From Octopus vulgaris (taxonomy: Eukaryota), in contig OX597830.1 in assembly GCA_951406725.2 (NCBI GenBank), positions 36,332,001-36,396,000 on the forward strand: 64,000 nt of DNA, given 5' to 3'. Within the stretch, counting starts at the first letter, position 1; each line of letters opens with the position of its first letter. Of this stretch, positions 2,810 to 57,767 are shown one piece after another. The notes below the pieces were generated by a model. That model was not told the origin of the DNA, searched no databases, and saw only the letters and a program-made list of their open reading frames with translations. Made by a program: the position numbers and the translations under genes.

Positions 2810-11917
<9,108 letters not shown>

Positions 11918-20807: not shown

Positions 20808-21071
20808 TATTACTATTTGTTCGTTCCCGTCTGGGCAATGAAAGGTCTTTGTATATTTTTATTGGTCTGTAATTTCTGACGAAGAATCTAATTTTTATCT
20901 TATGAAGAGTTTTCGTTTTTGTCCTTGGAATTGATTGGACTCCGAAACAATTTGTAGAATGTATATCGGTTCTGTACCAACTTGGATTATGAATTAAAGA
21001 TCGCCTACACTTAAGATTTTTCCTTTCCTTATACTTCATATAATGTTTTTGCAAATACTGAATATATATTT

Positions 21072-21386
21072 ACAGAGATGTACTTGCATAGCGAGTGACT
21101 TGATCTGAGATTGTGTGCTAGAACGAAAACAATTGCAGCGTAGAAGGTGTTTATAAGCAATTTAAGAAACACACAAAACCGTTAGATTCACTTCAACATT
21201 TAAATTTAATTTGTCAAAATATTTTCGTCGCTTTGAGACCGCGACCTGCACGAATTTTGTCAGTGAACAGGTCGCGGTCTCAAAGCGACGAAAATATTTT
21301 GACAAATTGAATTTAAATGTTGAAGTGAATCTAACGGTTTTGTGTGTTTCTTAAATGGCTTATAAACGCCTTCCACGCTGCAATTG
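21072..21386. mobile_element. Asymmetric inverted-repeat element (Penelope-like non-autonomous) with 13-bp flanking duplication
   Basis: Arms 21130-21248 and 21268-21386; left arm extended by ~60 bp; TGAATATATATTT at 21059-21071 and 21385-21397. Confidence 0.7.
21256..21306 (+). ncRNA. Minimal type I hammerhead ribozyme, G3-C8 core variant
   Basis: Stem I TTTGTCA/TGACAAA; core GTGAACA; stem II GTCGC/GCGAC; GAAA; palindromic stem III AATATT; predicted UUU cleavage at 21299. Confidence 0.6.
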
Positions 21387-21486
21387 AATATATATTTTTT
21401 TATATATATCCTTGACTTGGACTGTAGCGACGCACTTGGATGTTTGACAACCCTTTGAAGGATTTTATAGATGTGTGTGTGTGTGT

Positions 21487-21779: not shown

Positions 21780-22013
21780 GTTAATAGACTTTTTTTTAAT
21801 TTCTTCATTTTTAGCTTCTGGCAAAATATTGCACAACCCTTTACATTACAATACTAATTAAACAAAAAGTTAGTGATTAGAAGAATAACTTCTGTTAAGT
21901 AATTATGTTTTTTTTTGTTGGTTTTTTTGTGGGACTGGAAAAGATTTCTCTTTAATAAAACAACAACGTGAAATTATAAGAAAATATACGGCCGTCATCA
22001 TGCTGCTGAACAT

Positions 22014-22060
22014 CAGCCACTGAAGAAGCCTTAGCAGGGTGAAATCACATGATCTGGCTG
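22014..22060 (+). ncRNA. Type I hammerhead ribozyme
   Basis: CAGCCA-CTGAAGA-AGCCTTAGCAGGGT-GAAA-TCACATGA-TC-TGGCTG: perfect 6-bp stem I, intact core, stem III ATCA/TGAT, AUC cleavage at 22054. Confidence 0.8.
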
Positions 22061-22346
22061 TTCCACCGGCTGTAGTAGACGATTCTCATCAGCCAATGCT
22101 ATAAATATGAGTGCTTTTATGCACCACGAGGGCTTATGAAGTACATAACACAGTATTTTCTATTCTAACACAACCTTAACGTTAAGTAAGATTTCGAGAT
22201 TATCTTTTGATATTAATACTGATTCTGGTGCCATTGATTATTTTTTAATAATCTCACTGGCTGTTTGCAACACCAGTGCCTGAACGGAGACTGAGATTCA
22301 CTATATCGTTATCGAAAGATTCGGCTGTTATCCCACTGCTAGACAT

Positions 22347-22393
22347 CTGTCACTGAGGAACCCATAGCAGGGTGAAATCGCGTGACTTGTCAG
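22347..22393 (+). ncRNA. Type I hammerhead ribozyme, degenerate second copy
   Basis: CTGTCA-CTGAGGA-ACCC(ATAGCA)GGGT-GAAA-TCGCGTGA-CT-TGTCAG; U16.1 appears mutated. Confidence 0.65.
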
Positions 22394-22551
22394 TTCCGGT
22401 GGCTGTAGCAGATGATTGTCGTCTGCCAACGACATAATTAGGGGGGCTTTTATGAACCACGAGCCCTTATGAGAGATCCTCTCCAGGTAAATAACGCTGT
22501 ATTCTGTCTTCTCACACAACACCCACGTTAAGTTGGAGATCAGTGAGTTCG

Positions 22552-36313: not shown

Positions 36314-36750
36314 CTGCTGTTGCTGGCAGTATTATTTATTCTATTAACGAGCCGGAAGAGCTAAAAGGACTAAGTAAAGCCCTACAGAGAACGGACGAAA
36401 ATACACAGTGAAGTCTCTGGTTCGGTGCTGACGTTTCGTTCTCTTTAGTTGCTCTTTTTCTTCAAATCCCGGTTCAACCTCAATTGAGTAGACCTATAAC
36501 CAAAAACATTTTTGCCATAACCATCCTTCCATCTCGAACATAACTTATCAAGAACTAAAATACTCAATGGGACCTTTTGAACAGATTATTTGTGTAATTT
36601 AAGAGGAATTTGTCTGCTTTTCTACTTAGAGACACACACAACCCCTGCCTATCAGCCCATCTATCTAACGTTGCTGTTGTTGTTCTTAGTGACATTTATG
36701 AAGACCAATATAGTAGCAGATTCGTCAGAACATCGGACAAATTGTTTTAG

Positions 36751-36931
36751 TTCTGTATTTGAGAGATGAGGGATTATGTACATTATTTACATTATTTACA
36801 TTTGACGGATAATTCTCCTCATCTTGTTTGTTGTTAACACAACGTTTCGGCTGATGTACTCTCCAGTCTTCATCGGGTGTCCTGGGGGAATTTCGAATTC
36901 CTAAAGTATTTTTCCGATGTTGTTGTTGTTG

Positions 36932-37000
<69 letters not shown>

Positions 37001-37169
37001 TCACTGCCTGGAATGAACTTAGAATATTGGGGTTAGTAGCCTGCGCTCTTAACTGCTACGCCATATGTCTGCCGCGGGCACCTGATGAAGGCTGGCGATT
37101 ACATCAGCCGAAACGTTGTGTTAACAACAAACAAGATGAGGACAAATATCCATCAAATGTAAATATTGT
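36751..37169. mobile_element. tRNA-headed, hammerhead-bearing SINE-like element, inverted dimer, copy 1
   Basis: Minus unit: tRNA head (37070-36995), (AAT)n, hammerhead (36881-36836), tail. Plus inverted arm 37077-37169 with a hammerhead. TSD AAATTGTTTTAG at 36739-36750 and 37170-37181. Confidence 0.85.
37077..37122 (+). ncRNA. Penelope-type minimal hammerhead ribozyme
   Basis: GGCAC-CTGATGA-A-GGCTG...CAGCC-GAAA-CGTT-GTGTT; palindromic ACGT stem III. Confidence 0.8.
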
Positions 37170-37554
37170 AAATTGTTTTAGGTCTGGGCTCAGATCCTGC
37201 TGAGGCTAACTTTGCTTTTCATCCCTCCAGCAGCCGATAAAATAGATATCATTTAAGTACCAGTTCGATGGCATCATCTGATCCCCTTCTCCAAATTTCT
37301 GATTTTGTGTCTATGTCAAAAACAATTGTTATAAAGGTGAGTGATTGGCGGTATCGTTAGAGCATCAAGAAAAACATGCTTCAAATAATTTGTTTTGACT
37401 CTTATACGTTGTGAGTTCAGTTCTCGATAAGGTTAACTTTACTTTTCTTCCTTTCCAAATCGATAAAACGCTATTCAGGTGCTAGTGCCGAGGGTACCGA
37501 CAAACTACCGTCTTAACAAATTGTTGACTGTGTGCCGTTGTTATTATTGTTTTA

Positions 37555-56100: not shown

Positions 56101-56891
56101 TATATAACGTATATTCACGAAAAAATTTTTTTAGTGTATTAAAGCATATAATATTTGAAGCAATCTCACATGTAGAACTCGGGGTGTCTTTATCGAGACA
56201 CCTTGCTGGGGAGAAAAAAGTGCGTCTTATGCGACATCAAATACCGTACTTAGCTATACTTTGGGAATTAGAGAACTCGTGAATAATACCGGTAACAGCA
56301 TTTCTTCTTTTATTGATCATGATTAAAAGTGAACACGAATTACTAAAAGACACGTGAAATCGTTACATCAAAGTGGTGTTACCGGCTCAGTGCTCTTTTT
56401 TGGTTGACATTTATCAACAGTACCACGTGTCGAAAGGTCGGCTCATTTGATCTCACTCGGCCATTTTAGACAGTGTTAAAATCCTGTAAACCCAACTGAA
56501 ACAGCATTAGGTTAAAATACCAACGTCCATAGCAGATGTTATCTCTGATCGATTACCACCGTAAGTGACCTATCAATAGTGTACAGACATTAAGTATAAT
56601 ACTTTAGTGCAGTCTTTCTCAACCATTTTTTTTCTTTGATTTCTAATCTATTCCTTTGATTCCTATTCTATTCTACTGGATCCTCATAAACATTCGATGT
56701 TTAAAAACTTCTAATATATATTTATGATTAAATATCACTAGAAATTGTATTTAAAGAACTTTTTAAAATATTTTGTATATTGTAGAAGTATAACCAGTTT
56801 ATACAGTTCTATATTTAAGAGATGAAGGATTATGTACATTATTTACATTATTTACATTTGACGGATATTTGTCCTCAATTTGCTTGTTGTT

Positions 56892-56937
56892 AACACAACG
56901 TTTCGGCTGATACACCCTCCAGCCTTCATCAGGTATC
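56892..56937 (-). ncRNA. Penelope-type minimal hammerhead ribozyme (inverted arm)
   Basis: Minus strand GATAC-CTGATGA-A-GGCTG...CAGCC-GAAA-CGTT-GTGTT. Confidence 0.75.
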
Positions 56938-57293
56938 TTAGGGAAATTTCGAACCTGAGTCCTCATTCCTATGGTATTTTTCGATGTTGTCGTTGTTGTT
57001 GTTGTGATTCAGGTCACTGCCGTGGAGCATATAGCGTAGTGGTTAAGAGCGCGGGCTACTAGCCCCAAGAAGCTGAGTTCGATTCCAGGCATTGACCTGA
57101 AGAAGAAGAAGAAGAAGAAGAAGAAGAAGAAGGAGGAGGAGGAGGAGGAGGAGGAGGAGGAGGAGAAGAAGAAGAAGAAGAAGAAGAAGAAGAAGAAGAA
57201 GAAGAAGAAGAAGAAGAAGAAGAAGAAGAAGAAGAAGAAGAAGAAGAAGAAGAATACCTTAGGAATGAGGACTCAGGTTCGAAATTTCCCTAA

Positions 57294-57339
57294 GACACCT
57301 GATGAAGGCTGGAGGGTATATCAGCCGAAACGTTGTGTT
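57294..57339 (+). ncRNA. Penelope-type minimal hammerhead ribozyme
   Basis: GACAC-CTGATGA-A-GGCTG(GAGGGTATAT)CAGCC-GAAA-CGTT-GTGTT; GUU cleavage at 57334. Confidence 0.83.
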
Positions 57340-57767
57340 AACAACAAACAAGATGAGGAAAAACATCCGTCAAATGTAAATAATGTATAACCAGTTTTTT
57401 TGCAGATAAATTTTAACAAATAAAGCTTATATGGAGCCCCAATGGCCATTTGGCATTTTGTTGACAACCACTGCTTTAGGGATGAAATAATTTTAACACA
57501 TAAAAGTAAAGGACATACTAAAGGATTTAAAATCACCGATGCCTTCGTCCCTCTACGATTTTAATCCCAAGTTCAAGTAATTAAGTGTTTTGTTCCAAGT
57601 AATTAAGTGTTTCACTGTTAAGATCTCCGTAAAAAGAGAGCAAACATCGTTGGGAATCGAACCGAGCAACTGCACTCTACAATATCTGGATCGTGGTGAA
57701 AGGCATCATACAATACACAAGAGTATATTTTATCGGTTAGATGTCATAAAACCTTTGAAAACATACT

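Follow-up and report, generated by a model that had tools for sequence, protein, structure and literature searches.

A hammerhead motif with a natural G3-C8 core pair, probably self-cleaving, in a Penelope-like element from Octopus vulgaris

In the active hammerhead ribozyme, nucleotides C3 and G8 of the core pair with each other. Minimal type I hammerheads have been described in the pseudo-long terminal repeats (pLTRs) of metazoan Penelope-like elements (PLEs), with an extra base between positions 9 and 10.1, a G10.1-C11.1 pair and a short palindromic stem III, in thousands of copies that are mostly single or on opposite strands; a U3-A8 core variant is known among them (Cervera and de la Pena 2014, PMC4209133). 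Natural variants with a compensatory change of this same core pair were also reported by Perreault et al. 2011 (PMC3088659), where the accounts available give U-A only, G-C needing two transversions. Here we analyse a stretch of 64,000 nucleotides from Octopus vulgaris (contig OX597830.1, positions 36,332,001 to 36,396,000; hereafter the window), in which a plus-strand motif at 21256 to 21306 resembles the metazoan PLE hammerheads in all these respects but has G3-C8 as its core pair and a stem I of 7 bp. We conclude that the locus is probably an inverted pLTR insertion of a young Neptune/Nematis-type PLE, and that its natural G3-C8 hammerhead likely still cleaves itself slowly in the RNA of the parent element.

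Three other described systems frame this comparison. Poseidon of Anolis encodes a reverse transcriptase (RT) with a C-terminal GIY-YIG endonuclease, targets AT-rich DNA and leaves a tail inside the start of its open reading frame (ORF), between two RT start sites (Frangieh et al. 2024, PMC11167929), as does the element studied here. In Poseidon, however, G3-C8 is an engineered rescue mutant, the ORF begins inside the hammerhead and tails of 30-40 nt are cited, whereas in the octopus element G3-C8 is the natural state, the ORF begins 92 nt after G3, the tail measures 60 nt and the protein shares its linker zinc finger with Neptune and Nematis. Those two endonuclease-positive (EN+) clades share with our element the CX3CX2C linker, a CCHH endonuclease, tandem and inverted pLTRs, a one-sided tail and a (TA)n bias (Craig et al. 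2021, PMC8557442), and differ from it in the core variant. Non-LTR retrozymes are likewise short non-coding hammerhead repeats linked to PLEs (PMC7229834; bioRxiv 10.64898/2026.07.22.740005). As described there, they are head-to-tail tandems with canonical cores, unlike the single or inverted pLTR insertions found here.

The first-pass annotation of the window had reported 119-nt inverted arms, a one-sided extension of about 60 bp and flanking repeats, and each of these is present. The arms (21130-21248 and 21268-21386) are 97% complementary, the extension measures 60 nt, and a 13-nt direct repeat, TGAATATATATTT, flanks the whole (Table 1). The minimal-hammerhead topology that it saw around a GUGAACA core is also complete, with the core GTGAACA in the DNA, GAAA at 21290-21293 and the palindrome AATATT at 21293-21298. 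All the marks of the minimal type I class are in place (U4, G5, A6, A9, G12, A13, A14, an A15.1-U16.1 pair, H17 and stems I and II). Folded in isolation, this stretch is predicted to form stems I and II, with a z score of only -1.5. Because the minus arm begins at C8, and hence has neither the 5' strand of stem I nor G3-A7, the locus holds one whole motif and not two. Searches for CUGANGA would indeed miss such a core, as had been foreseen, since the C3/G8 identity is absent. An Rfam scan of the window returned 0 matches at the gathering score and missed the window's canonical hammerheads too. By contrast with 40 dinucleotide shuffles of the window, which together gave one site, not G-C, a descriptor specifying a Watson-Crick 3-8 pair, a stem II of at least 5 and a stem I of at least 4 found five sites in the window itself: the motif studied here, with G3-C8, and four others with C3-G8.

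G3 and C8 are both the family consensus. We searched a 2.8-Gb genome (G000) for exact matches to a 22-mer spanning the core and found 5,534 copies with G3 and C8, compared with 0 for a reversed-pattern control. With the other 20 letters fixed, 166 copies had a different base at position 3 and 324 G3 copies had a different base at position 8. These 490 deviants leave G3 and C8 in 5,534 of 6,024 pattern matches, which identifies the family as a variant hammerhead and not a canonical CUGANGA member. The first 100 listed of the 166 position-3 deviants contained no C3-G8 combination; the first 100 listed of the 324 position-8 deviants, counted by hand, comprised 42 G, 41 T and 17 A. The best 30 BLAST loci had G3 and C8 in 30/30, and 19 of them share flanks, marking these as passengers of a larger duplicated unit. 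One inverted insertion has multiplied in this way, inside a larger repeat with identical flanks (L003-L030, 19 loci, together with L041, L043, L416, L448, L449, L453 and L454).

Because selection on the core had to be avoided, we drew a second sample using a 22-mer at the ORF start (10,314 matches in the same genome). This sample of 70 loci, most of the first 100 listed on contig C1, yielded 102 arms from 66 insertions, and five of its loci belong to the duplicated carrier unit. Among arms covering the respective sites, G3 was present in 58/61 and C8 in 59/64. In contigs of four sequencing runs labelled as four organisms, no alternative base reached 5% or more at position 3 or 8. Changes that distinguish subfamilies fell on 4 of 8 loop II sites versus 1 of 42 core and stem sites (p 0.0014), the single stem change, U-A to U-G, being compatible with wobble pairing; two CpG-decay sites were left out of this test, and the downstream untranslated region (UTR) is likewise fairly constant. 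Among the viral contigs scanned for the G3-C8 pattern, stems I and II accompanied it in 0 of the 120 stretches covered.

A partner PLE, which the first-pass annotation had supposed to exist, was found. Between two inverted motifs separated by 2.5 kb lies a GIY-YIG ORF that reads in the same direction as the tailed motif, and a search for the endonuclease gave 7,786 candidates, of which 150 were scored, with open frames of up to 1,025 aa. GTGAACA lies downstream of the ORF in 10/10 long copies fetched. One locus (L460) is a full tandem of motif, ORF with two frame breaks, motif, tail and (TA)n, in which the ATG again follows G3 by 92 nt and the two motifs, at 735 and 4996, stand in the same sense 4,261 nt apart. 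The window arms translate to the start of this parent ORF. Its 998-aa frame matches GIY-YIG (PF01541) at residues 888-978 (E 1.6e-5); RT motifs can be read by eye at 291, 441, 574 and 613, and the CX3CX2C linker and CCHH zinc finger of the endonuclease, compared by eye with the published description (PMC8557442), at 869, 889, 907 and 938. Among 62 homologues of the parent protein, the top-ranking one with a name is recorded as an RT-domain protein of Octopus vulgaris. With a single RT and GIY-YIG ORF, CCHH, the linker, tandem and inverted pLTRs, a one-sided tail and a target duplication of variable length, the parent is, judged by its sequence, a young EN+ PLE of the Neptune or Nematis type.

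The ORF-start sample further shows how such copies arise. Of its 66 insertions, 35 are inverted and 30 single, which departs from the head-to-tail tandems of non-LTR retrozymes. Exactly one arm carries the tail in 32/35 inverted pairs, and a flanking duplication of at least 9 nt that is not pure TA occurs in 16/35, against 6.9% of mismatched controls. Duplication length varies between copies, targets are AT-rich, and inverted upstream copies with truncated 5' ends also lie beside long copies. Junctions differ from copy to copy, so each copy is an independent PLE insertion product. These data bear on two alternatives. The first-pass annotation had read the locus as a separate, SINE-like (short interspersed nuclear element) family whose inverted arms form a hammerhead dimer, and the commonness of the inverted two-arm form, with two whole motifs in 9 of the 35 pairs, would suit such a non-autonomous family. 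This reading is nonetheless largely refuted and, in our estimate, very improbable: the two arms run on opposite strands, there is just one whole motif at the locus and in 24 of the 35 pairs (none in the remaining 2), and the variable junctions mark independent insertions of a PLE. The 339-nt read-through RNA is predicted to be a single long hairpin (-213.8 kcal/mol) that buries the motif. The inverted dimer thus fails as the working unit, and what had been taken for a separate SINE-like family is the 5' end of an autonomous PLE, comprising pLTR, ORF start and tail. What the terminus has in common with that of the element called a hammerhead SINE in the first-pass annotation (the 56812 element) amounts for the most part to AT-rich target DNA and AGAGATG; in the majority of G3-C8 family copies this place reads TTACGGAGATG.

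Long terminal inverted repeats, an AT-rich duplication, thousands of copies and the lack of an Rfam match would also suit a miniature inverted-repeat transposable element (MITE) or other DNA-transposon remnant with hammerhead-like text by chance. The unequal ends, the variable length of the duplication, the translation of the arms to an ORF start and the single chance site in the 40 shuffles all speak against this, and the existence of a full RT-endonuclease parent refutes it; we give it almost no credence.

The 3-8 pair covaries among related families, in agreement with the proposal that the change from C3 to G and from G8 to C is compensatory. A sister PLE family with intact ORFs of 1,310-1,312 aa, about 35% identical to the parent at the N-terminus, carries upstream of its ORF a C3-G8 motif with C9 (CTGATGC) in 36/36 contexts, a count in which overlapping loci may figure twice. 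A third PLE family (L155, L164-L193; 3,165 candidates) has U3 in 30/30 and A8 in 30/30. We then scanned 36 metagenome relatives with positions 3, 8 and 9 left free and found six sense-strand motifs just after the ORF, four C-G and two U-A; a seventh, U-A, was chosen by eye from a relaxed scan. Positions 3 and 8 form a Watson-Crick pair in every one of the ten related PLE families (C-G in five, U-A in four, G-C in one), and in an alignment of 11 motifs from these families the pair is C-G in 5 rows, U-A in 4, G-C in 2 and mismatched in 0. U4, G5, A6, the extra base between 9 and 10.1, G10.1-C11.1, G12, A13, A14 and A15.1 are invariant in 11/11 rows, and four stem II pairs are paired in all of them. 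Stem I pairing is 69.8%, a count lowered by two rows whose shorter stem III puts them out of register. The covariation score was 0.757, versus 0.211 for shuffled and at most 0.132 for slid alignments, controls that are lenient because the structure was drawn from the same sequences. In a quick RT tree the three families of the searched genome form one group (SH-aLRT 100), within which the G-C family is sister to the C-G and U-A families; U-A itself turns up on four separate branches.

Some observations on these relatives stand apart from the counts. The third family has a 5-bp stem II and a 4-nt palindrome, and its tail ends at a fixed place in the ORF. An unrelated metagenome PLE (L195, 2497-2503) combines C9 with U3-A8, making C9 a second recurring core variant. 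A minus-strand U3-C8 match (L203) was taken as chance, at 0.35 matches per shuffled pass, and left out of the alignment.

Experiments on other hammerheads are consistent with activity of such a core. In a full double-mutant scan, swapping 3-8 to G-C was the only rescue reported within the CUGA motif (PMC9901934), and C3G/G8C partly restored a PLE hammerhead that needed its own protein to cut (PMC11167929). Given that C-G or U-A fills this place in related families, we regard the octopus motif as likely to be functional, a self-cutting RNA of a kind missed by standard pattern searches.

Several results weigh against this conclusion. No arm (0/102) starts at the cut site and 78/102 span it, so the RNA that was copied was uncut; Poseidon likewise inserted from uncut RNA (PMC11167929). 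Although a palindrome for a dimeric stem III is present, energy prediction gives the double hammerhead (-25.4 kcal/mol) an advantage of only 0.6 kcal/mol over two monomers (-24.8), while a competing fold reaches -30.6. Deviant copies show an excess of G3-G8 mismatches, and at one locus (L369) the mismatch occupies both arms of a single insertion, which means that mismatched RNA was copied. The sister family, with its intact ORFs, departs from the core rule by placing C at the normally fixed A9 (CUGAUGC; L132, 2638-2644 and 7227-7233), which may mean relaxed constraint. Among relatives with a 3' flank, 12/19 had no motif. G-C has a single origin on the quick tree and so represents one event, the young family is uniform by descent, and Pfam and PDB sequence searches returned no RT match to the parent ORF. 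At the cut site, contigs from the sequencing runs showed neither a joint nor an end, a result that counts neither for nor against cleavage.

Such results would favour a motif that descends from a hammerhead but now cuts too slowly, if at all, to be of use, and either serves a different function in the PLE RNA at its 5' end (as a protein-binding site, promoter or translation signal) or simply rides along, with G3-C8 a tolerated accident fixed in one master element. Copies derived from uncut RNA, recurrent G3-G8 mismatches, C9 in the sister family and L195, and the weak predicted dimer energy all fit this account, as do the reports that insertion in vitro is independent of cleavage (PMC11167929) and that Naiads spread without hammerheads (PMC8557442). 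We nevertheless judge it unlikely: the active fold includes the 3-8 pair, which remains Watson-Crick in ten families with three pair types, and the core and stem II residues listed above are the same in every aligned motif. Formation of this pair in the active fold, together with three Watson-Crick versions over ten families, points to selection for catalysis.

The mismatched copies themselves show a marked asymmetry. Changes of C8 to G (L350-L369) greatly outnumber the mirror change at position 3 and have arisen within several subfamilies; they may reflect a mutation hot spot or biased errors of the RT. A view of the G3-G8 copies as an ancestral intermediate clade was rejected, as the 20 fetched copies are spread over several loop-II subfamilies and one insertion holds C on one arm and G on the other.

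We propose the following course of events. The element's endonuclease would nick AT-rich DNA, and its RT would begin copying at two points within the ORF, some 60 nt from each other, giving one tailed arm and one arm without a tail in opposite directions. With the G-C swap, nucleotide 8 would still be held in the active site through its pairing with nucleotide 3. To complete the weak AAUAUU stem III, two motifs would pair or the element's protein would assist, and cutting in the parent RNA would be slow. The copy at our locus is a passenger whose arms would fold back on each other, silencing the motif.

Table 1 Features of the inverted insertion, in window coordinates
Feature	Position	Strand	Basis
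Left target-site duplication; last 2 nt are the element end	21059..21071	.	Direct-repeat comparison; similar duplications at other inverted pairs
PLE tail, 60 nt, parent ORF codons 11-31	21070..21129	-	Translation matches parent ORF start in locus L135
Minus arm, 5'-truncated at C8, 3' part of hammerhead only; start codon is ATT	21130..21248	-	
Plus arm with whole hammerhead, 5' UTR and ORF codons 1-10; without tail	21249..21386	+	
Stem I, 5' strand	21256..21262	+	Pairs with 21300-21306
Variant core G3 U4 G5 A6 A7 C8 A9	21263..21269	+	Sequence and family counts
Extra unpaired G between positions 9 and 10.1	21270..21270	+	Invariant in 11/11 aligned motifs
Stem II (5 bp, G10.1-C11.1) and 9-nt variable loop	21271..21289	+	Fold, alignment
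G12 A13 A14 and palindromic stem III AAUAUU	21290..21298	+	
U17; predicted cut 3' of U17	21299..21299	+	Inferred from hammerhead numbering
Stem I, 3' strand	21300..21306	+	Pairs with 21256-21262
PLE ORF codons 1-10; ATG 92 nt after G3	21355..21384	+	
Right target-site duplication; first 2 nt are element	21385..21397	.	Direct-repeat comparison

Upstream of the motif, the 5' ends of short family copies pile up 19-26 nt before G3 (33/102 arms; L137 ~5720). In short copies that keep the AG before ATGCAGC, the preceding base is G in 20/31, and in long copies it is C or T in 17/17. Transcription may start at the pile-up site, the G being a copied cap. It also resembles a splice acceptor (CTAAC, pyrimidines, AG); contigs from the sequencing runs showed no joint at this AG, which is again uninformative either way.

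Elsewhere in the window, another inverted two-arm family occupies 36749-37173 and 56805-57387 and carries canonical C3-G8 minimal hammerheads (37082, 56932, 57299). With its one-sided extension and flanking duplications, it looks like a second PLE pLTR family and not a SINE; its 56805 copy has a tRNA-like stretch between the arms (~57020-57090, by eye). Two diverged direct copies of a hammerhead unit, about 333 nt apart, lie at 21982-22533 (cores 22020 and 22353); this unit has a longer stem III and resembles a tandem retrozyme. About 4 kb of nearly pure (TA)n extends over ~4000-8200.

The element and the ribozyme motif at this locus are of known kinds, with a well-supported core variant that appears new and a function that is likely. 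Lunse et al. are said to have collected some 150,000 PLE-linked hammerhead variants in 2017. The literature searched yielded no natural G3-C8 hammerhead and engineered variants only (also PMC3884650), a negative that large earlier hammerhead surveys might overturn; the PDF text of one survey's supplement contains 9 GUGA strings, all outside cores (PMC4209133). Whether PLE hammerheads work or ride along is debated (PMC8557442, PMC11167929). We see an even chance that a G3-C8 hammerhead is here met in nature for the first time, fixed in a retrotransposon family with recent activity and about 6,000 copies, in a clade that flips its catalytic 3-8 pair among C-G, U-A and G-C. It would then offer direct evolutionary evidence of selection for the active fold, and further hammerheads would be invisible to CYGANGA searches. 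If this is true, G at position 3 becomes an added term for search descriptors, the published ones that we consulted using C or U (PMC4209133, PMC13481778), and the natural G-C swap would also make the classic laboratory rescue mutant a wild type. The three sister families in one genome provide a ready set for comparing kinetics.
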